A stretch of 64,000 nt of DNA from Candidatus Lustribacter sp. (GTDB lineage: Bacteria; Vulcanimicrobiota; Vulcanimicrobiia; Vulcanimicrobiales; Vulcanimicrobiaceae), in the NCBI GenBank assembly GCA_965277805.1, contig OZ255842.1, positions 3,968,001-4,032,000 on the forward strand, given 5' to 3'. The notes below the pieces were generated by a model. The model was given only the letters and a program-made list of their open reading frames with translations. It made no database searches and was not told the DNA's origin. This document shows positions 2,223-63,590 of this stretch, piece after piece (the stretch's first letter is position 1; the number at the start of each line of letters is the position of its first letter). A program made the translations under genes and the position numbers.

Positions 2223-2917
2223 GCCGCACGCACCAAGGGATGCGCGCCGGCGCCGCGCCAGGCGAGGATGACCAGCGGCGTTTGTTCGTCGCCGTTGCCG
2301 GCGGGGTTGCCGAGCAGTGCCTTCTCTACCGCATCGCGCACGACGCCGGGCGACGCCCCGAGCGCCTTCGCGCGGCGCAGATCGTTGGCGTCGACGATCG
2401 CGATGTGCAATCCCAGCTCTTGCGCGAGTTCCGCGCTGACCTTGTCCGGCTCAGCGGGGCCGAGCACGATCGCACGCTCGTAGGGCGGCAGCGTGCCGGT
2501 GTAGCCGTCGATCGCGGCGATCGCTTCGCCGAGCAATTCGTAGAACACGCCGCGGCGTCCGATCGCGCGGCCGGCCACCTGCAGCACTGCGGCGCCGAAG
2601 ACGCGCCACGCGCCGACTTGGTCGATCACGAGCTGCAGCGACTCGGGCTGGTTGATCGTCGCGAGCACACCCGCGCGGCGCGCCAGCACGCGTGCGAGCT
2701 TCGAAGGACGGATCGTTTCGGCGCCGATGAAACGCCCTTGCGCGATCGCCACCGCCGTCTCCGCAATCGCGACGACGTCGCCCGGCTGCGCTAGGCCCGA
2801 GAGCGCTTCGCGCAACAGCGCGGCGAGATCGTCGCCTTTGACGATCAAGCGCGTGCGCACGGGAATCGCCACGATGCCTTCGGGCAGCGAGGGCTCGTGA
2901 ATCGCCACCGGGATCAT
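2219..2917 (-). CDS. F420-0:gamma-glutamyl ligase (CofE) family protein of unknown function
   Basis: Start re-called at ATG 2917 (ATGA overlap with murF). Motifs PVRTRLI..GDDL, GDVVAIAETAVAIAQGR, IDGYTGTLPPY, AIVDANDL, NPAGNGDEQTP resemble the short CofE-like subfamily. Confidence 0.8.
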   Translation of the reverse strand: MIPVAIHEPSLPEGIVAIPVRTRLIVKGDDLAALLREALSGLAQPGDVVAIAETAVAIAQGRFIGAETIRPSKLARVLARRAGVLATINQPESLQLVIDQVGAWRVFGAAVLQVAGRAIGRRGVFYELLGEAIAAIDGYTGTLPPYERAIVLGPAEPDKVSAELAQELGLHIAIVDANDLRRAKALGASPGVVRDAVEKALLGNPAGNGDEQTPLVILAWRGAGAHPLVRAA

Positions 2918-4281
2918 GCCGACAACCCCGCCACGATTTGCTCCATGCGGTACATGCGCGAGCCTTTGAGCAGCACGGTATCGCTGGGCCGCCCGTTTTC
3001 GCGCAGCCACGCGATCGCTTCTTCGTTGGTTTGGTAGATCACGAGCGCGTCTTCCGCAAGGCCCATCGCACGCGCGCCCGACGCAAGCGAGGGCGCGAAC
3101 GCGCCGCCGAACAGCACGACGTCAGCGGACGCTGCCGCCGCCGCGCCGACGCTCTGGTGCATGAACGCGGCGTCCGGACCCAATTCGGCCATGCTGCCGA
3201 TCACCGCGATGCGGCGCGCCGGCACGCGCTCGCGCGCAAACGTCTGCAGCGTGGCGAGCGCGCCGCTCGTCGAGGCGTTGTAGGCATCGTAGATGATCGT
3301 CGGTCCGCCGGCGATCGCGATGCGTTCGTAACGGCCGTGCGGGAGTTCGAATTTCGGCGCAGCTTGCGCGACGGCGGACGGATCGACGCCCGCCGCCCAC
3401 GCCGCGGCGAACGCAGCGGCAAGGTTGCGCCGGTTGTGATCGCCCGGCACGTCGACGAGCAACGGAAACGCGCGCACGTCGTCACCATCGATTGCGAGCA
3501 CGTCGTCGAGGCGTACGATCGCCGCCCGTTCGCCCGCCGGCGGCCGTTGCGCGTCGATGCCGAACCACACCGGCTGCTGGCCCAACTCCGGCGCGCGCTC
3601 CCGCGAGGTGTCATCGCTGAGGTTGAGCACCGGTTGCGCGCCGCCCCCAAAGATTCCCCACTTCGTCTCGGCGAGCCGCTCGCGGCTGCCCATGATCTCG
3701 AGGTGCGCTTCGCCGATGTTCGTGAGCACGCCGATGTCCGGCCGCGCCGCCATCACGAGCGGCTCGAGATCGCGGTATTTGCGCGCGCCGAACTCGACGA
3801 TCGCCACGCGCTCGTCGCCGTCGTCGAGGGAGAGCAAGAATTTCGCGACACCGATCTCGTTGTTCTCGTTCTCCGGCGTTGCGGTTACCGGCCGGCCGGC
3901 CGCCTCGAACGCCTGCAGCGCGAACGTCTTCGTCGTCGTCTTGCCGGTACTGCCGGTGATTGCGATGACCGGACCGTTCACGCGATCGCGCGCCAGCCCG
4001 CCGAGCGCGAGATAGGCCGCCAGCGTGTCGGCAACGACGATGCCCGCTTGACCCTCCGGCAGCGCGCTCGCATCATCGACGATGACGGCCGATGCGCCGG
4101 CCGCCACGGCGGCGTTCACGAATTTGTGTCCGTCGAAACGCTCGCCGCGCAAGGCCAGGAACGTTTCGCTGGGCCGGATGTCGCGCGTGTCGGTCGAGAC
4201 CGCGATCGTGGCCGGCAAGTGTTCGCGATTGTGCACGGTTCCTGCGAGCGCGGCCAGCGCGTCGTTCGTCGGCAGCCTCAT
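2914..4281 (-). CDS. murF: UDP-N-acetylmuramoyl-tripeptide--D-Ala-D-Ala ligase
   Basis: TDTR, GERFDGH, ITGSTGKTTTK, NNEIGV, DAYNAS, GSMAELG, LLKGSR motifs. Confidence 0.96.
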   Translation of the reverse strand: MRLPTNDALAALAGTVHNREHLPATIAVSTDTRDIRPSETFLALRGERFDGHKFVNAAVAAGASAVIVDDASALPEGQAGIVVADTLAAYLALGGLARDRVNGPVIAITGSTGKTTTKTFALQAFEAAGRPVTATPENENNEIGVAKFLLSLDDGDERVAIVEFGARKYRDLEPLVMAARPDIGVLTNIGEAHLEIMGSRERLAETKWGIFGGGAQPVLNLSDDTSRERAPELGQQPVWFGIDAQRPPAGERAAIVRLDDVLAIDGDDVRAFPLLVDVPGDHNRRNLAAAFAAAWAAGVDPSAVAQAAPKFELPHGRYERIAIAGGPTIIYDAYNASTSGALATLQTFARERVPARRIAVIGSMAELGPDAAFMHQSVGAAAAASADVVLFGGAFAPSLASGARAMGLAEDALVIYQTNEEAIAWLRENGRPSDTVLLKGSRMYRMEQIVAGLSA

Positions 4282-57841: not shown

Positions 57842-58023
57842 ACGCGGCGACGGCAGCCACCGCCACGCCCGGATCGACCGGGGTGATCGCGCACGTCTCC
57901 GACAGCCCGGTCTACATCGCCCCGGCCTCGCATCAGTTCCTGATCGCGCCGGCGGGCAAAGTCATCATTCCGGTCCAGGAAAAGACGGCCGGCATCGGCA
58001 TCCACGCCGACCACAGCTCCTAA
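57838..58023 (+). CDS. Small hypothetical protein (61 aa)
   Basis: GC-typical codons, ATGA overlap with the MFS gene, TGgTATGCT 6 nt upstream of the ATG. Confidence 0.5.
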   Translation: MNAATAATATPGSTGVIAHVSDSPVYIAPASHQFLIAPAGKVIIPVQEKTAGIGIHADHSS

Positions 58024-58721
58024 ACCACGCCCGAGAACGAGACGAAGCCTTCGCGCCGTCCGCTGAGAAACGCGCGGACGTCGCTTGCGAGACGCGCGAT
58101 CTCGACCGCATCGAACGGGTAGTGCGCGCCCGCGGCCGGTTCGAACAGATCGGCGAATTGGCGGCCGTCGCGCACGTTCGATCCGACGCACGTCAAGCGC
58201 ACGCCGTCGTCGCCCGCGGGCCGCAGCGTGGCCGAGAGATGACCGACGGCAAAGCGCATCGAGTTGTCGATGAGCGGGCCTTCTTCCACCGGACCTAAAC
58301 CGCGGCGCGCGCGGGCGCTGGCGTCGGGATCGGGATCCGGCCGTAAGATCAGCGCGCTGCGAAAGCCCGCCTCCAGTTCGACGACGAGTTCGCGCGCCAC
58401 GAGTTCGTACGTCGGCGGCGCACTCGCCGGCATCTCTTCGAACGGACGATCGCGCACGTCGATCTGAAACGACGGGCGCAATGCAACGCGCAGCAGGTCG
58501 CCGATCACGGTCAGCATGTCCGAACCGCGGAACGTCACCAGCGGCAATTCCGCGTCGTCGACGATCCGCGTCACCGGATTCGCGCCGGCGTTCGGACGAT
58601 CGAAAAGACGGAACGTACCGCTGCGATAGACCGCGGTTCCGCGCAGATCTTTGGCGCGCAGCAAGGCGGTCCAAACTTGCTTGCCATCGAGCGCGCGCAG
58701 ACGCTCGAACGTCGCATCCAT
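58020..58721 (-). CDS. Hypothetical protein
   Basis: Globular-looking ORF filling the gap; start re-called at ATG 58721; no recognised motif. Confidence 0.6.
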   Translation of the reverse strand: MDATFERLRALDGKQVWTALLRAKDLRGTAVYRSGTFRLFDRPNAGANPVTRIVDDAELPLVTFRGSDMLTVIGDLLRVALRPSFQIDVRDRPFEEMPASAPPTYELVARELVVELEAGFRSALILRPDPDPDASARARRGLGPVEEGPLIDNSMRFAVGHLSATLRPAGDDGVRLTCVGSNVRDGRQFADLFEPAAGAHYPFDAVEIARLASDVRAFLSGRREGFVSFSGVV

Positions 58722-58758
58722 ACGGAGGCTTTCAGTATTGGCGCGGGAAGTTCCGCGC

Positions 58759-59598
58759 ATGGCTACGCACTCGGTCCAGGAACGCGACGTTTCGTACCTG
58801 CAGCACGGCGACCGTTCGTATGAAGCGCACCTGTATCAGCCGGACGGCGACGGTCCGTTTCCGGCGGTCGTCGAGGTGCACGGCGGCGCGTGGACGATGA
58901 ACGACCGCTTCAGCAACGCCGCGCTCGACAAGGCGCTCGCGGCTTCCGGCGTCGTGGTTCTCGCGCTCGACTTCCGCATGCCGCCCGACGGCCGCTATCC
59001 CGACTCCGCGGCCGACGTCAACTACGGCATCCGCTGGCTCAAGGCGCACGCGGCCGAACTGCACACGCGTCCCGAACTCGTCGGCGGCATCGCGACGTCG
59101 AGCGGCGCGCAGACGTTGCTCGTGAACGCACTGCAGCCGCACGATCCGCGCTACACGGCGATTCCGCTCGCCGGCTCGCCGGCCGTCGATGCAACGCTGG
59201 CGTTCGTCGCCGCATGCTGGCCGATCGCCGATCCGCTGGCGCGTTATCACATGGCGAAGGGCAAGGGCAACGACAAGCTCGTCGCCGCGCACGATGCGTA
59301 TTGGCCCGACGAAGCGGCGATGGCCGAAGGCAATCCCCAGCGCATGCTCGAGCGCGGCGATGCCGTTACGCCGTTGCCGCCGCTGTTCATCGCGCAGGGA
59401 ACGAACGACGACAACGTCACGCCCGATATGGCGGATAAGTTCGCTGCCGCCTATCGCAGCGCCGGCGGTTCAGTCGAGCTGAAGAAATTCGAAGGCCAGC
59501 CGCACTCGTTCATCAAGGAACCCGTCTCGCCGGTTGCCGCCGAGGCGATCGAGCTGCTGATCGGTTTCATCCACGACCGCAACAGCGTCGCGCGTTAG
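58759..59598 (+). CDS. Alpha/beta hydrolase (HSL-like)
   Basis: Start re-called at ATG 58759. HGGAW, ATSSGA, QGTNDDNV, GQPHSF. Confidence 0.88.
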   Translation: MATHSVQERDVSYLQHGDRSYEAHLYQPDGDGPFPAVVEVHGGAWTMNDRFSNAALDKALAASGVVVLALDFRMPPDGRYPDSAADVNYGIRWLKAHAAELHTRPELVGGIATSSGAQTLLVNALQPHDPRYTAIPLAGSPAVDATLAFVAACWPIADPLARYHMAKGKGNDKLVAAHDAYWPDEAAMAEGNPQRMLERGDAVTPLPPLFIAQGTNDDNVTPDMADKFAAAYRSAGGSVELKKFEGQPHSFIKEPVSPVAAEAIELLIGFIHDRNSVAR

Positions 59599-60153: not shown

Positions 60154-60921
60154 TTAGCCGCGATCGATGAACGACGGCATTTGGTTGGGAAGGATCGTCG
60201 CTTCGTACAGGTTCACTTCGTCCGGCAGCGTGGCCATCAAGACCGCGATACGCGCCACGTCCGAAGCCGCCATCACGTATTGCTGCGGCGTCGGTCCGGG
60301 ACCGGCTTTGGGCTCGCGGCCCACGGTCTGACGAGTGAAGCCGCTCAGCGTGGAGCCCGCATGAATGATCGAGGCGACGACGCCGTACGCGCGGCCGTCG
60401 CGCGTGACCTGATGCGTAAGCCCATGCAGCGCATGCTTCGTCGCCGTATACGCGAGTGAATCGGGCCGCGGCGTCTTCTGCGACACGCTCCCCATCGTGA
60501 TGATGCGGCCGCCTTGCGGGTCTTGCGCCTTCATCATCTTCACCGCTTCGCGCGTGGCGATGAACGCGGCGGTGAGGTTGACCGCAATCACGTCATTCCA
60601 AAAGTCGAGCGACATCTCGTCGATCGGCTTGTGTGCCGTGATGCCGGCATTGTTCACCAGCACGTCGAGCCGCCCGAAGTTGCTCTTCGCAGCCTCGAAT
60701 AATTTGATCACGTCGGCTTCGTTTCGGACGTCGCCGGGCACCGGGAGCGCTTTGCCCCCGGCGCTCGTGATGGCAGATGCCACGCGGTCGAGCTCCGCCA
60801 CCTTTCTGCCGCCCAATATCACCGTCGCGCCCTCGGCTCCAAACGCCGTCGCAATCCCCTCGCCGATGCCGCCGCTCGCGCCCGTCACGATCGCGATCCG
60901 GCCAGTCATTTGTGCTGCCAT
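60154..60921 (-). CDS. SDR oxidoreductase
   Basis: TGASGGIG, NNAG, YTATKHA. Confidence 0.93.
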   Translation of the reverse strand: MAAQMTGRIAIVTGASGGIGEGIATAFGAEGATVILGGRKVAELDRVASAITSAGGKALPVPGDVRNEADVIKLFEAAKSNFGRLDVLVNNAGITAHKPIDEMSLDFWNDVIAVNLTAAFIATREAVKMMKAQDPQGGRIITMGSVSQKTPRPDSLAYTATKHALHGLTHQVTRDGRAYGVVASIIHAGSTLSGFTRQTVGREPKAGPGPTPQQYVMAASDVARIAVLMATLPDEVNLYEATILPNQMPSFIDRG

Positions 60922-60967
60922 GTGCTACGGTGTATCCTTCACTCCTAGCGTCTACCTCCAAAACCGC

Positions 60968-62232
60968 CTAATAACTTTGAGCGTCCGCGAGTCGCCGCAG
61001 TGCGAACAGTGCACGGCCTCTTCGTGAGAAATTCTCGGCACGGAGTTCATAGATTGGTCGTCCCTGCTGATCTTGAGCCGCGCTCTCCGTCATTCCAAAT
61101 AATTCGCAGAGCCGTTTACCCTCGGACGTCCAGCCGACGGCGGCGATTTTCGTGACGCGAATTTGGCACTCACGAACGAGGTCTATCAATTGATTGATCG
61201 CGGCCTGCATCAAGTGCTCAAACGCACCTTGGAATGCGCCGTCGCGAACGTTCCGTGCTACCGGATCGATAACAATCGACATGACGTAGAGTTGGAGATC
61301 CCCACCTTGCTGGTATGGCACGATATCGAAATCTCTGATTTTGCTGTCGTCCTGCTCGCCTCGAAGAATTGCGTCGTAGGTGGCAGCTTTCACCGGCATG
61401 AGATTCACATAACCCAGAACATGATCCGGAGAGCCCCTCTCAAGTAGGAACACGTAAATTGCGGGATTTACCTTCACCCAGTCCAGGGCAACACCACGCT
61501 CTATTAGCTCGTGCTCTTTGGCCACGCCATCAGCCAGATAGCACTTGAGGTCGAGTTCATGGCACTTATTCAATAACTCTTCGAAGCGTTCGTACGAATC
61601 GATGTCGCGACCCAATAGTATCTCAAAATTGTACCGGTTCTGGTTGAGAAATGGTAACCATTGATGTTCTATGGAGTCGAGCCCGTAATAGTCACCATGC
61701 TCGTACTCGGAGAACGGATGCTCTTCGAGCAGCGATGACTTAAACGAGAATCCCTCCGCACCGCTCGCTCCCGTATGCGGGACGGCCAGATTGACGAGTC
61801 TCACCCAGTTATCGCGGTCGCCGGTATCATTGCGAATGAGGCATACCTGATTTCGCCCGATGAGTTGACCCCAGTTGAAATCGCTCGGCAGAATGCTGCC
61901 GCATAAAGAATTTTATCGAACTTGATATCGCGATATTTCAACATCGCGTTACCCACCACGTAGGTGCCGAAACTATGAGCGACTATGGAGGGTCGAGCGC
62001 CGCTCCTAAGTGCTTTCGATCGCTCAAAATACCACGTCGCGAACGACTCGACGATTTTTACCCGTTGCCGCGGCAACAGGAACTTGACTAAACCGAAGTT
62101 GCCGAAATCGAATGAAGCAGTCGCAATGCCGTCAGCACTGAGGACGTCCCCAAGTCCCTTTTGCCAAGCGCCGCGAGTTCGGATCCCATGGATTGACATC
62201 ACCAGCGGGCGGCTTTGATAAATCATGATCAC
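60968..62232 (-). pseudogene. Frameshifted alpha/beta-hydrolase + GNAT-like fusion (about 420 aa if restored) in an AT-rich islet
   Basis: The 5' ORF (IHGIRT, AHSFG, FDKIL) continues in another frame as LCGSILPSDFNW...NDTGDRDNWV into ORF 60968-61804 (EHGDYY, GYVNLMP, LYVMSIVIDP, SEGKRLCELFG). One base is missing near 61905. Confidence 0.75.
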
Positions 62233-62294
62233 CCATAGATCAGGCTTTACCGATGGGTCGTTTGCTTCTGCCTAGACGGCGCCGGCCCGAGCCG

Positions 62295-63590
62295 TTAGGC
62301 TAGGACCGGTTCGGCTGCTTTTTCTCGTGCCTGATTGTATTCTTCGAATACCTTGATCAGGTCGGGGATGAATGGCGAGAACTGCACTTGCGTACGGCGG
62401 ATTTGGCTCTCAAAACCATCGCTGAAGTGCGCTTTGTTCTTTTCGACCGGGATATCGAGCGCGTTGTTCTCGGCGGGATCGCGGATCACGCCGATCGGGT
62501 CTTCACCGCGCGCGACCTTGGCCATTTCGCGTTGCAGCATCTTGCGGAATTGGATGACGCCGGTGTCGGTCGTGCCGAGCTTCTCGAGATGGCGCAGTGC
62601 GATCGGGCCTTGCGTGACCCACGCCATCACGTCTTGCGCGTCGATGATGTCGAGCCGGAACTCGCCCTGCTTGTCGCGATACGGGAAATCATAGAGCGGA
62701 ACGCGATCGAGCAGCTTTTGCGGCACTTGCATGCCTTCGGGCGGTTCGTAGGCGATGTACCAGTAGTGCATCGACGTCGTATCGTCGAGCGGCACGCGCA
62801 TTTGATATGCGTGGAACTTCCAGACTTTGCCGCCGCCGCTGCCGACCGCGAGAATATTCGGGAAGAGCACCGGGTGCCCGACGCGCCAATCGTCTGAATC
62901 TTCCGATGCGCCCTCGAGCAAACGGCGCTTGTAGATGCCGTACTTGAATTCTTGAAACGCGATCTTGAGGTGCTTGCGCGAGATCTGATAGTGCGTGCCG
63001 GCGAAGCCGCTCTTCTCTTCAACGAACTCTTGCAATTTGCCGTGCAGCCACTCGGTGTGCACGGGGTCGAGCGAGTTCTCCATGATCTGCAGCCAATTGC
63101 ACGGAATGATGGCCTGACCGATTTGGCGGATGGCGCCGTCGACGACGAAACCGGGCCAGCGCGGCAAGAGCGGCGCGGGTAACGGACCCATGTATGCAAA
63201 GATCAATCCGCCGAGCGCTTGCACGGGATAACCGGTGGTCGCGGTCTTCTCTTTGAACGTGCTGCCGTCGGGTTCGTTGGGATGATTGATGCACGCCCCT
63301 GAGGCGTCGAACTGCCAGCCGTGATAGGGACAGCGAATGCCGACTTCTTGCGGGATGCCGTAGGCCAGCGATGCGCGCCGGTGCGGGCAGAACTCCGCGA
63401 CGAGGCCCAGCACGCCGCTGCGATCGCGGAACAGCACGAGATCCTCGCCGAGCAGGCGGACGCGCTTGGTCCAGGCGTCTTTCAGCTCCTCAACGGCGGC
63501 AATCGGATGCCAGTACCGGCGCTGGAGTTCGCCCATCGGCGTTCCCGGGCCGACCAGCGTGAGGTGCGTGTTTTCAAGCTCGCTAAGCAT
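62295..63590 (-). CDS. Rieske oxygenase alpha subunit (LigX/phthalate dioxygenase-like)
   Basis: LTLVGPGTPMGELQRRYWHPI, CPH...CPYH, ENSLDPVHTEWLH, QDVMAWVTQG. Confidence 0.93.
   Translation of the reverse strand: MLSELENTHLTLVGPGTPMGELQRRYWHPIAAVEELKDAWTKRVRLLGEDLVLFRDRSGVLGLVAEFCPHRRASLAYGIPQEVGIRCPYHGWQFDASGACINHPNEPDGSTFKEKTATTGYPVQALGGLIFAYMGPLPAPLLPRWPGFVVDGAIRQIGQAIIPCNWLQIMENSLDPVHTEWLHGKLQEFVEEKSGFAGTHYQISRKHLKIAFQEFKYGIYKRRLLEGASEDSDDWRVGHPVLFPNILAVGSGGGKVWKFHAYQMRVPLDDTTSMHYWYIAYEPPEGMQVPQKLLDRVPLYDFPYRDKQGEFRLDIIDAQDVMAWVTQGPIALRHLEKLGTTDTGVIQFRKMLQREMAKVARGEDPIGVIRDPAENNALDIPVEKNKAHFSDGFESQIRRTQVQFSPFIPDLIKVFEEYNQAREKAAEPVLA

Follow-up and report, generated by a model that had tools for sequence, protein, structure and literature searches.

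Alpha/beta-hydrolase effectors have been described in NTP-dependent conflict systems and in systems built on EAD/Death-like adaptors, where lipid hydrolysis was proposed for the EAD-linked hydrolase and a pairing of caspase and hydrolase was reported (Kaur, Burroughs, Iyer, and Aravind, eLife 2020, PMC7159879; eLife 2021, PMC8195603). The components described there (EAD1, TIR, Ser/Thr kinase, WD40, and FGE-sulfatase/FGS) are also the fusion partners of the hydrolase module considered here, and the caspase/hydrolase pairing is paralleled at 1 of 22 homolog loci (L054), where a caspase gene lies directly upstream. By themselves, these shared fusion partners suggest that the present hydrolase clade and the clade of Kaur et al. 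may be the same. Unlike the systems of those papers, however, the present subfamily is joined to a GNAT-fold domain and lacks NTPase, vWA, STAND, and adaptor partners as well as any conserved neighbor. The combination of hydrolase and GNAT fold was not found in the accessible text of PMC7159879 or PMC8195603, and two supplement files of PMC7159879 contain no GNAT, hydrolase, or abhydrolase entry; other supplements could list such an architecture.

A related hydrolase module also forms the C-terminal part of two proteins from enterobacterial plasmids, the product of the third PDC-M60 gene and a PDC-M63A-like protein. On an Enterobacter plasmid, the hydrolase-module gene is the third of a PDC-M60 locus, completing its A/B/C set beside a recombinase, and its C-terminal part is unlike that of the PADLOC model. 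On a Klebsiella plasmid, the gene lies between GajA/GajB (Gabija) and OloA/OloB (Olokun). The plasmid modules are only 24 to 30% identical to the N-terminal domain of the present family (E values of 2e-10 to 6e-19), and the proteins differ from it in having an N-terminal DUF6932 or PDC-M60C head and no GNAT-like domain. Both belong to multigene candidate systems, and the PADLOC models miss the present family. Among the papers listed for them, PDC-M60 and PDC-M63 appear in surveys only.

The CBASS effector CapV is a lipid hydrolase. Single-protein defense proteins that combine effector and sensor, and likewise CapV, would share with the present family a common logic, in which an exchangeable N-terminal damaging enzyme (hydrolase or TIR) is attached to a constant C-terminal domain. 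The present family differs in having no signaling partner. Literature searches returned no anti-phage effector composed of an alpha/beta-hydrolase and a GNAT domain and no combination of GNAT, TIR domain, and hydrolase in defense islands; among the titles and abstract openings retrieved for GNAT, TIR, anti-phage, and acetyltransferase, none concerned this architecture.

A foreign gene in a catabolic operon

The window is the whole 64,000-nucleotide stretch of Candidatus Lustribacter DNA that we analyzed. Within it, 1.37 kb of foreign DNA with one gene has entered the short spacer of a Rieske-oxygenase-to-SDR operon, in the same orientation as the operon:

60922..62294, no strand assigned: inserted islet of 1,373 nt, lying between the SDR start codon and the Rieske stop codon
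60154..60921, minus strand: resident short-chain dehydrogenase (SDR) gene, downstream (Pfam adh_short, E 4e-50; 91% DNA identity to G003)
62295..63590, minus strand: resident Rieske/LigXa-like oxygenase gene, upstream (Pfam Rieske, E 2e-20, and LigXa_C, E 4e-17; 96% DNA identity to G003)

Without the islet, the SDR and Rieske genes stand 11 nt (G003) or 8 nt (G001) apart in two of the seven same-genus genomes, and the same slot is filled by metabolic cargo encoding SBP and TauD in G004 and G006. The islet DNA had a match in G000 alone among the 31 genomes searched, and a protein-level match to its gene was found in none of the seven same-genus genomes. GC content is 52.5% in the islet and 52.6% in the gene (60968-62232) versus 64.4% in the window. 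Relative to all 1.3-kb segments of the 5.53-Mb genome (mean GC, 64.3%; standard deviation, 3.0), the islet stands at z = -3.9, and just 0.31% of the segments are as low as this. GC3 shows the same offset, with 0.59 in the islet gene versus 0.78 to 0.84 in five neighboring genes. A preliminary description of this DNA had reported an abrupt compositional shift covering exactly one gene among catabolic genes. The shift is indeed confined to a single gene, although it extends mildly into the Rieske gene at its 3' end, and the flanking genes are catabolic or transport genes (SDR, Rieske/LigXa-like oxygenase, GNAT, esterase, and MFS). A scan for mobile-element scars detected no direct or inverted repeats flanking the islet, no terminal repeats, and no target duplication. 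Scans of the islet for promoters (2 promoter-like sites versus 1.1 expected) and terminators (none) did not rise above shuffled controls.

Loss of one base separates the catalytic residues

The gene lies within the interval first proposed for it (60944-62275), and every hydrolase and GNAT motif that had been quoted from it could be located:

60968-62232, minus strand: the gene, one gene read as two open reading frames
61801-62232, minus strand: ORF 1, 143 aa
60968-61804, minus strand: ORF 2, 278 aa, with a GTG start, spanning the GNAT-like domain
61906..62232, minus strand: N-terminal piece, the first half of the hydrolase with the oxyanion HG and the AHSFG elbow, 109 codons before the break
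62176-62190, minus strand: HGIRT, containing the oxyanion HG
61966-61980, minus strand: AHSFG nucleophile elbow, with Ser at 61972-61974
61904..61905, minus strand: the break, two bases where intact relatives have one codon (KIL-x-CGS)
61634..61903, minus strand: second half of the hydrolase, containing the catalytic Asp and His and no longer in frame with the Ser
61811-61813, minus strand: catalytic Asp, in GDRDNW
61697-61699, minus strand: catalytic His, in EHGDYY
60971..61633, minus strand: C-terminal domain with a GNAT fold, from structural fold matches
61394-61414, minus strand: GYVNLMP
61262-61291, minus strand: LYVMSIVIDP
inside 61091-61144, minus strand: SEGKRLCELFG
60968-60970, minus strand: stop codon of the gene

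The frame had been suspected to need repair, and alignment to intact relatives combined with frame arithmetic places the fault at 61904-61905; because two bases stand where the relatives have a codon, one base has been lost. Past the break, the N-terminal frame continues out of register for 33 codons and meets a stop at 61801. No uninterrupted frame holds all three catalytic residues, with Ser in one frame and Asp and His in another, so the fusion protein cannot be made in this genome. Apart from this break, neither half is interrupted by a stop, and all conserved residues have been kept. Contigs built from all four runs of one sample are identical to the window at the break, with no gaps, although the runs are not independent since they derive from a single sample that is possibly the assembly's own source. 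The window copy is a recent pseudogene and therefore has no action here as a fusion protein; for this genome, the modest result is a recently inactivated foreign gene within a catabolic operon. The copy is 46 to 55% identical to its close relatives, and its N-terminal piece is 54 to 55% identical to P0003 and the G096 copy.

A programmed frameshift was also considered and rejected. By inspection, the sole 10-nt span allowing a -1 rescue contains no X-XXY-YYZ heptamer.

Folds of the two domains

Evidence for the folds comes from an AF2 model of the intact relative P0003, built from a 46-row alignment (pLDDT, 93.1; pTM, 0.87), which predicts a compact protein of two domains. The preliminary description had proposed an alpha/beta-hydrolase fused to a GNAT-like domain, and both folds were recovered on this relative. 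Residues 1 to 196 matched the lipase 6nkc at Z 18.2 (rmsd, 2.6; 165 aa aligned), and many further hydrolases followed at Z 14 to 17. A minimal alpha/beta-hydrolase core is common to this domain and to 6nkc (Lip_vut1), 5f2h, 1pja (PPT2), and 3bdi, with Z scores of 18.2 to 15.7 over 165 to 175 residues. Foldseek likewise matched it (E 1e-6) to small lid-less lipases, esterases, and thioesterases, which have the same catalytic order of Ser-Asp-His but are only 11 to 17% identical and, unlike the N-terminal domain, have a GNAT partner in none of the listed titles. At the level of fold, the modeled N-terminal domain is thus confirmed as a minimal lid-less alpha/beta-hydrolase with Ser-Asp-His order and an HG oxyanion motif, and this likeness does not fix its substrate. 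In the 46-sequence alignment, H80, S81, G83, D135, and H173 are near-invariant (D135 and H173 in 90% or more). In sequence searches, the best Pfam match of the window hydrolase, Hydrolase_4, scored 18.2 bits versus a cutoff of 27, and the 46-row profile matched no PDB chain at an E value of ≤1. As leads only, the nearest clusters in the ESM Atlas (0.90 to 0.94) either had no name or comprised small alpha/beta-hydrolases from phages and bacteria (DUF900, Ser_hydrolase, and DUF676).

The C-terminal domain matched GNAT enzymes in Foldseek (E 2e-6; probability, 1.00) and, through the model, the GNAT-like domain of SxtA at Z 14.5 (rmsd, 2.7; 162 aa aligned); the matches listed from Z 14.5 to 11.4 are all GNAT or GNAT-like domains. 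Its fold is shared with the decarboxylase domains of polyketide loading modules (SxtA, 7uci; CurA, 2ree; GphF, 6mfc) and with AANAT/Nat enzymes. Among these, the four best rows span Z 14.5 to 14.0, and no GNAT subfamily can be chosen because the top rows lie within 1 Z unit. A divergent GNAT fold is therefore confirmed for the modeled domain at the fold level. In sequence, the GNAT-like domain of the window has no Pfam match even at an E value of ≤10; a distant member, P0117, scores 24.0 bits with Acetyltransf_1 versus a cutoff of 20.7.

In GNAT enzymes, the pyrophosphate loop of motif A follows strand 4 and reads Q/R-x-x-G-x-G/A. This CoA pyrophosphate loop is not conserved among the 46 sequences, which are variable after LYxMSI, with a loosely placed R and one G recurring. 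When the GNAT-like profile was compared with a neighboring canonical GNAT by hhalign, the probability was 1.6%, and only the motif-B-like WTxxGxxLCxxLGM was aligned. Invariant residues of the domain fall in GYVNLMP, MSIVI, and AAVGWTSEGxxLCELFGM, and G267, Y268, S312, A358, W361, T362, and G365 are near-invariant in the 46-sequence alignment. In the model, S312 lies on strand 304-315, A358 lies on strand 351-359, W361 and T362 come just after, and G365 is in helix 363-371; these are elements that we take to line the ligand cleft in GNAT enzymes.

A rare and patchy family

Members of the rare family to which the gene belongs are approximately 415 to 440 aa long; the family has no name of its own and is named by no Pfam, NCBIfam, or PADLOC model. 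A profile search retrieved 2,760 proteins at an E value of ≤1e-3 and 82 library representatives at ≤1e-30; it is through the second half of the hydrolase that the 2,760 library proteins are matched. Full-length copies were found just twice in the 385 genomes of the class searched. Related loci were retrieved with a 13-row alignment as the query. In 9 of 12 genome loci, the AT content of the gene exceeds that of its flanks by at least 0.05, and in all 23 metagenome loci that have flanks, the gene is lower in GC than these. Phyla are intermixed in a quick family tree. Broken copies include those of the window, L026, and 8 of 34 metagenome loci; some of the breaks in metagenome loci may stem from faulty assembly. 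A search of 50,697 phage records gave no match, and none of 82 pattern matches on viral contigs was confirmed as a homolog.

Both domains recur in other combinations. Inspection of the best 150 of the 2,760 profile matches revealed one protein, P0084, that combines TIR with the GNAT-like domain and lacks the hydrolase. TIR, hydrolase, and GNAT-like domain occur together in P0014, P0085, and the L024 gene. Swapping of the hydrolase with TIR, SIR2, or nuclease domains had been proposed as a check, and for TIR it is seen in P0084, although the support is thin, as this is the only clean swap among those 150. Word-index searches returned 12 proteins with the GNAT-only alignment and 5 with the GNAT part of P0084, and none of these carried a new N-terminal effector type. 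Of 43 proteins matching the hydrolase module alone, 20 have extra Pfam domains, including 9 with TIR or SEFIR, 5 with Pkinase (Ser/Thr kinase), and one each with EAD1, FGE-sulfatase, WD40, ankyrin, and Laminin_G_3.

Homologs stand mostly among housekeeping genes

Enrichment of homologs in defense islands had been put forward as a check on an anti-phage role, and this did not hold. At 22 homolog loci (a small sample with no matched control), there was no such enrichment and no complete system. Their flanks are mostly housekeeping or metabolic (for example, enolase, iPGM, cytochrome oxidases, ABC transporters, RuvB, and Era), which is largely the context that the preliminary description had said would speak against defense. 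Only 10 of 152 neighboring ORFs (6/89 and 4/63) touch a PADLOC model, and these represent generic domains (ABC ATPase, kinase, PLD, Era, RuvB, and dNK) or unvalidated candidates (DUF488 and MNT). No neighbor is conserved across the 22 loci, and in the 12 genome loci, there is neither a conserved pathway operon around the gene nor an NTPase core (MoxR-vWA, STAND, or GTPase) as a conserved operon partner. No small antitoxin gene is conserved beside family members, the window copy being flanked by SDR and Rieske genes. The gene had not been recognized as part of a named system, in agreement with PADLOC-DB v2, which returned no family for either window piece at an E value of ≤1 or for P0003, P0014, P0048, and the L019 and L024 genes at ≤1e-5.

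A possible decayed conflict-type effector, or possibly an accessory enzyme

Taken together, we read the window gene as most likely a decayed stand-alone effector of the conflict type, to which we give about an even chance of being correct. Three observations argue for this reading: elsewhere, fusions join the hydrolase module to TIR, SEFIR, EAD1, kinase, WD40, and FGE-sulfatase domains; in some proteins with the GNAT-like domain, a TIR replaces or precedes the hydrolase; and copies of the gene resemble costly mobile cargo in being patchy across phyla, AT-richer than their hosts, and repeatedly broken. Any transferred gene that is dispensable could also be AT-rich and often broken. Members of the family would be stand-alone cytoplasmic proteins similar to those of abortive infection, in which the hydrolase might be a damaging effector whose substrate is bulky or interfacial (membrane lipid or protein, for example). 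The GNAT-fold domain might gate this effector, as the constant part with a regulatory or ligand-binding function. The anti-phage role originally suggested for the gene is thus upheld in part, by the fusions of both modules to TIR and other domains and by the two plasmid loci with defense candidates, and is weakened by the missing island enrichment and conserved neighbor.

A more specific proposal is that the GNAT-fold domain is a previously unrecognized sensor or gate of bacterial immunity, serving a one-protein system that spreads on its own and not within defense islands. A trigger, perhaps a phage protein or a ligand resembling acyl-CoA or a nucleotide, would free an interchangeable N-terminal death effector, which would be a lid-less serine hydrolase in most members, TIR in some, and both in others. 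We hold this only tentatively and consider it possible rather than probable. If the family is immune in function, it would add a compact system that consists of one protein and is regulated by a new kind of domain, and the GNAT fold would join the ligand-sensing folds that gate TIR and hydrolase effectors. It would also be a defense gene hidden from island-based discovery, because its copies stand alone among housekeeping genes, in a class where current catalogues are weakest. If it is not, this would still be an unnamed family of two-domain enzymes spreading between soil phyla.

The rival that survives best is an ordinary accessory enzyme acquired horizontally, a bifunctional esterase/acyltransferase acting on a small molecule (a xenobiotic, an antibiotic, or a lipid or envelope precursor). 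Such an enzyme would take no part in conflict with phages, and the window copy would be decaying because it is dispensable. We regard this as rather unlikely, although several observations fit it well. The 22 loci with housekeeping or metabolic flanks and no defense enrichment, the catabolic operon here, and the SBP and TauD genes in the same slot of G004 and G006 are all consistent with such an enzyme, as are the catalytic triad that is intact across the family and the nearest folds, which are lipases, esterases, and thioesterases for one domain and acyl-CoA-using GNAT enzymes for the other. One source annotates a member as 'pimeloyl-ACP methyl ester carboxylesterase,' a name that would also suit this explanation. 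However, a TIR joined to the GNAT-like domain (P0084, P0014, P0085, and L024) and a hydrolase module joined to EAD1, SEFIR, kinases, and WD40 are unexpected for a metabolic enzyme. The gene never occurs in a conserved pathway operon, its CoA pyrophosphate-loop motif is not conserved, and its distribution, with two full-length copies in the 385 class genomes, is very patchy.

GNAT toxins of the TacT/AtaT type acylate their targets and form toxin-antitoxin pairs with an adjacent small antitoxin gene. By analogy, the roles could be reversed, so that the GNAT-fold domain would be the active effector, acylating, for example, tRNA, protein, or a nucleotide, and the hydrolase or TIR would be a regulator, sensor, or second effector. 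The invariant S312, A358, W361, T362, and G365 on presumed cleft elements would fit a working pocket, P0117 passes the Acetyltransf_1 cutoff, and the GNAT-like domain is the constant part of the proteins with TIR, hydrolase, and GNAT-like domains. We nevertheless find this arrangement quite improbable: no small antitoxin-like gene is conserved next to the family, the motif A loop lacks conservation, hhalign against a canonical GNAT gave the low probability noted above, and the full hydrolase triad is kept in nearly all members, which argues that the hydrolase is not a dead scaffold.

Finally, it is highly improbable that the gene is intact or functional here, through assembly error, programmed ribosomal frameshifting, or two ORFs acting as separate proteins, since the stop-free halves with all conserved residues, the GTG-start ORF of 278 aa spanning the GNAT-like domain, and a short T run adjoining the break are outweighed by the gapless agreement of separately built contigs from four of four runs, the lack of a slippery heptamer in the rescue span, and an N-terminal product that has Ser without Asp or His. 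Nor is the breakage a conserved recoding site, because the lineage of L026 and L065-L068 is broken at a different place from the window copy.

An AT-rich insertion in a variable slot

The gene under study is a foreign single-gene insertion (60922-62294) lodged between the start codon of a short-chain dehydrogenase (SDR) gene and the stop codon of a Rieske oxygenase gene. The features concerned are as follows:

60154-60921, minus strand, short-chain dehydrogenase (SDR) flank
60968-61804, minus strand, ORF 2, C-terminal piece, 278 aa (stop codon 60968-60970)
61801-62232, minus strand, ORF 1, N-terminal piece, 143 aa
62295-63590, minus strand, Rieske/LigXa-like oxygenase flank

The gene has a GC content of 52.6% and a GC3 of 0.59, against a window mean GC of 64.4% and a GC3 of 0.78 to 0.84 in five neighboring genes, and a sliding profile drops to 0.48 to 0.54 from about 61000 to 62350. 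Set against every 1.3-kb window in the genome of 5,533,281 bases (mean, 0.643; standard deviation, 0.030), the islet has a z value of -3.9, and just 0.31% of windows are as low. These figures confirm the AT-rich single-gene islet reported in the preliminary description and place it well outside chance variation. The genome (G000) holds 34 low-GC regions of this kind (1.3-kb GC at or below 0.55). The largest, of 27.4 kb and 53.9% GC, lies beyond the window (G000:C1, 3805801-3833200).

When the DNA was searched against 31 genomes (G000 plus 30 relatives, including the unpublished G015 and G030), the islet portion matched G000 alone. A protein-profile search gave a match in none of the seven same-genus genomes and full-length copies in 2 of the 385 searched genomes of the class, namely, G000 and G096, a member of another genus of the family. 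The Rieske-SDR junction was compared in G001, G003, G004, G006, and G007, five of the seven genomes from the same genus, and is a variable slot in the genus, carrying the foreign gene in G000. It is empty in G003 (11 nt from Rieske stop to SDR start; flank identities of 96% and 91%), G001 (8 nt), and G007 (a gap of about 100 nt). In G004 and G006 it holds genes for a substrate-binding protein and a TauD-type dioxygenase, both with the native GC of 64%, at L013 (G004:C17, 2037-4095) and L014 (G006:C83, 1750-3790), with 83% DNA identity to each other. No repeats or target duplication bracketing the 1,373-nt insert were found. No promoter or terminator signal within the insert exceeded shuffled controls, so it would be transcribed together with the operon.

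Rieske/LigXa-like oxygenases have many paralogs in G000 and the same-genus genomes, with eight further matches of >800 bases in G000 (67 to 74% DNA identity). These paralogs suggest an expanded aromatic or O-demethylation repertoire. Elsewhere in the window, a 246-aa ORF of native GC without a Pfam family (58020-58760, minus strand) lies between genes for an MFS transporter and a BD-FAE/Abhydrolase_3 esterase.

A hydrolase joined to a GNAT-fold domain

Every motif quoted in the preliminary description was found in the window gene. The N-terminal piece gave a sub-threshold Pfam match to Hydrolase_4 (18.2 bits; cut-off, 27), and the C-terminal piece gave none even at E<=10. Neither piece matched NCBIfam or PADLOC, in line with the preliminary description, which did not recognize it as a named system, and no PDB chain matched the family in sequence. 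The protein belongs to no named family. A word-indexed search of 5.8 billion proteins returned three relatives (46 to 48% identical), and searching 1.84 billion representatives exhaustively with a profile returned 2,760 proteins at E<=1e-3, 82 of them at E<=1e-30.

The family has a two-domain architecture, a hydrolase followed by a GNAT fold, with a conserved triad. An AlphaFold2 model of an intact relative (P0003), built from a 46-row alignment, reached a pLDDT of 93.1 and a pTM of 0.87; confidence in an earlier five-row model was limited to the C-terminal domain. Residues 1-196 are predicted to form a minimal alpha/beta-hydrolase, closest to the small lipase 6nkc (Z, 18.2; rmsd, 2.6; 165 aligned residues); 5f2h and PPT2 rank next, with numerous esterases, at Z 14 to 17, and Foldseek likewise matched small hydrolases (E, 1e-6). 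Near-invariance of H80, S81, G83, D135, and H173 in the alignment identifies a nucleophile elbow and a Ser-Asp-His triad.

Residues 196-397 are predicted to adopt a GNAT fold (Foldseek E, 2e-6). The best matches, SxtA GNAT-like (Z, 14.5), CurA GNAT_L (14.3), AANAT (14.2), and GphF (14.0), cannot be ranked, all lying within 1 Z unit of one another; among the matches listed to Z 11.4 all are GNAT or GNAT-like. Aligning the GNAT-like profile with a neighboring canonical GNAT in hhalign gave a probability of 1.6%, with only a motif-B-like stretch aligned. Near-invariant residues in the 46-row alignment are G267, Y268, S312, A358, W361, T362, and G365, the last five on or beside model strands 304-315 and 351-359 and helix 363-371, elements whose counterparts presumably line the acyl-CoA cleft in GNAT enzymes. 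The loop following strand 304-315 is variable in the alignment; canonical GNATs carry Q/R-x-x-G-x-G/A at the matching loop.

Modules shared with TIR-, EAD-, and kinase-bearing proteins

Many of the best 150 of the 2,760 library hits matched the profile only at positions 1-103, which cover the latter half of the hydrolase; the matched part lies at differing points along proteins of 200 to 1,235 aa. A Pfam scan of 49 library hits included 43 that match the hydrolase module alone and 6 others. Among the 43, 9 carry TIR_2/SEFIR and 5 a protein kinase, with single cases of EAD1 (with CarboxypepD_reg), CarboxypepD_reg alone, FGE-sulfatase, WD40, ankyrin, and Laminin_G_3; 19 have no family and 4 only sub-threshold matches. 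The six others are arranged as follows:

P0084, TIR and GNAT-like, without the hydrolase
P0014 and P0085, TIR, hydrolase, and GNAT-like
P0117, 140-aa head of unknown type and GNAT-like (Acetyltransf_1, 24.0 bits; cut-off, 20.7)
P0048, 170-aa head of unknown type, hydrolase, and GNAT-like
P0069, 50-aa extension

Replacement of the hydrolase by another domain, proposed earlier as a check, is seen in P0084, with TIR in its place (one protein among the 49 hits scanned). Across 156 proteins, a local HMM from the 46-row alignment found 67 with both domains, 60 with the hydrolase only, and 29 with the GNAT-like domain only, 27 of these 29 being short and probably fragments. The GNAT-like domain was also matched alone in Bacillota (27 to 30% identity, residues about 220-391) at L027 to L029, on MAG contigs of Bacilli, Christensenellales, and Firmicutes.

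Hydrolase-only relatives at 24 to 30% identity occur in 27 plasmid records, two of which were examined. On Klebsiella pneumoniae plasmid pKPN-332, the hydrolase-module gene, whose head matches DUF6932 and PDC-M63A (a PADLOC phage-defense candidate), lies between GajA/GajB and OloA/OloB. The IS5-bounded block (L030, 913-9395) is a compact plasmid defense island of Gabija (GajA/GajB), the 392-aa DUF6932 and hydrolase-module protein, and Olokun (OloA-like and OloB). On an Enterobacter hormaechei plasmid, the gene is third in a PDC-M60-like A/B/C locus (L031, 1528-6702) adjoining a tyrosine recombinase gene; only residues 1-153 of its product match PDC-M60C (positions 2-154 of 407), so its tail, the hydrolase module, differs from the one that the PADLOC model has there. 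Located 2 kb downstream of this locus is a GNAT/DUF1778 toxin-antitoxin pair. The modules are common to TIR-, EAD-, and kinase-bearing proteins and to plasmid defense-candidate loci.

Genomic context and proposed function

Scanning 185,579 species genomes with a pattern yielded 15 loci, 12 of full or near-full length, in MAGs labeled Bradyrhizobium, Longimicrobiaceae (2), "Ca. Gilichinskyi," Mucilaginibacter, Verrucomicrobiota, Sphingomonadales, Bryobacterales (2), Acidobacteriota, Proteobacteria, and Terracidiphilus. A metagenome scan added 34 loci on mostly short contigs. When the ORFs lying up to about 6.5 kb from the gene at the 12 genome loci were compared all against all, no shared neighbor emerged besides the gene itself. 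Up to four ORFs per side were annotated with Pfam at the 12 genome loci (89 ORFs) and 10 metagenome loci (63 ORFs). Most are housekeeping or metabolic, such as formate dehydrogenase parts, cytochrome bd and aa3 assembly, glutaminase, Era, YbeY, enolase, iPGM, RuvB, HPPK, and ABC transporters. A few are conflict-like: HepT/MNT, PIN, HicA, RadC, PLD, DNase II (2), a serine recombinase, an AAA-ATPase/PD-(D/E)XK protein, and a caspase. PADLOC matched 6 of the 89 and 4 of the 63 ORFs, as generic domains or unvalidated candidates, and found no complete defense system among the neighbor ORFs of the 22 loci. The enrichment in defense islands that the preliminary description proposed to test was thus not seen in this small, uncontrolled sample. 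The G096 copy is surrounded by unknown genes of low GC, and a lone Cas1-like gene (L038, G096:C20, 5961-7571, 537 aa) lies 2.6 kb away; no other Cas proteins were detected within 20 kb.

Kaur et al. (eLife 2020, PMC7159879; eLife 2021, PMC8195603) describe conflict systems of the vWA-MoxR and GTPase types with alpha/beta-hydrolase effectors paired with caspases and propose membrane-lipid hydrolysis for EAD-linked alpha/beta-hydrolases; effectors of this type are therefore already known. A caspase (Peptidase_C14) gene at metagenome locus L054 (1506-2261, plus strand), about 30 nt upstream of the homolog (2292-3662, same orientation), recalls the pairing of the 2020 paper, at only 1 of the 22 loci. 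The fusion of the hydrolase with a GNAT-fold domain and the GNAT-fold-TIR pairing were not found in the literature searched, and both are absent from two supplementary files of Kaur et al. 2020.

We infer, giving it about an even chance, that the family is a stand-alone conflict-type protein in which a lid-less hydrolase would do the damage and the GNAT-fold domain would be the constant gate or sensor. An ordinary accessory esterase/acyl-transferase is less likely: the esterases among its structural neighbors and the mainly housekeeping flanks are consistent with it, and the association of the modules with TIR, EAD, and kinase proteins argues for the conflict-type reading. Still more doubtful is a reversal of roles, with the GNAT-like domain as effector; its near-invariant residues are compatible with this, and the variable loop after strand 304-315 argues against it. 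As a conflict-type protein, the family may represent an immune protein that does not depend on defense islands and that carries a new regulatory domain, the window copy being dead.

Transfer and decay

The copies are solitary, AT-rich, patchy, and often broken. Gene GC was below that of its own locus by 0.05 or more at 9 of 12 genome loci and below the flanks at all 23 metagenome loci with at least 1 kb of flank (by 0.04 or more at 18). A quick maximum-likelihood tree with 44 rows mixes the phyla: the Sphingomonadales copy clusters with those of Acidobacteriota (SH-aLRT, 99), L024 and P0014, both TIR bearing, nest next to the TIR-less Bradyrhizobium copy (support, 100), and the window copy falls in a six-row clade with P0002, P0007, P0005, P0003, and the G096 copy (support, 99).

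Three-frame translation shows that ORFs 1 and 2 are a single gene read in two frames. ORF 1 reads ...KFDKIL, after which 33 codons are out of frame, and the second frame is open from 61912, reading CGSILPSDF... as far as the stop at 60968-60970. Across the break, the sequence of intact relatives is KVLFFGSILP, KVLLSGSILP, or KIL-x-CGSVLP, so exactly one codon has been reduced to two bases (61904-61905) by the loss of one base. Words of the stretch occur in seven sequencing runs and essentially the whole stretch in four, all of one sample; contigs assembled separately from these four show no other letters and no gaps relative to the window over 60900-62320. This agreement excludes a consensus artifact; as the assembly itself may derive from that sample, it does not confirm the break independently. 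Break apart, both halves are stop-free and retain the family-conserved residues, and we conclude that the window gene is a recent pseudogene. A functional or recoded gene in this genome, for which the intact halves might speak, is highly improbable, as inspection found no slippery heptamer in the 10-nt span permitting a -1 rescue of the frame.

Broken copies are frequent, comprising the window gene, a Terracidiphilus-type copy (L026, 8001-9190, frameshift, split at residue 142/143), and 8 of the 34 metagenome loci, with a stop in L061 and L068 and split frames in L063, L065 to L068, L070, and L072; some of the metagenome breaks may be assembly errors. The break in L065 to L068 is that of L026, and these were counted as one allele. 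Its presence in four metagenome contigs of peat type suggests that this lineage has retained the broken allele.
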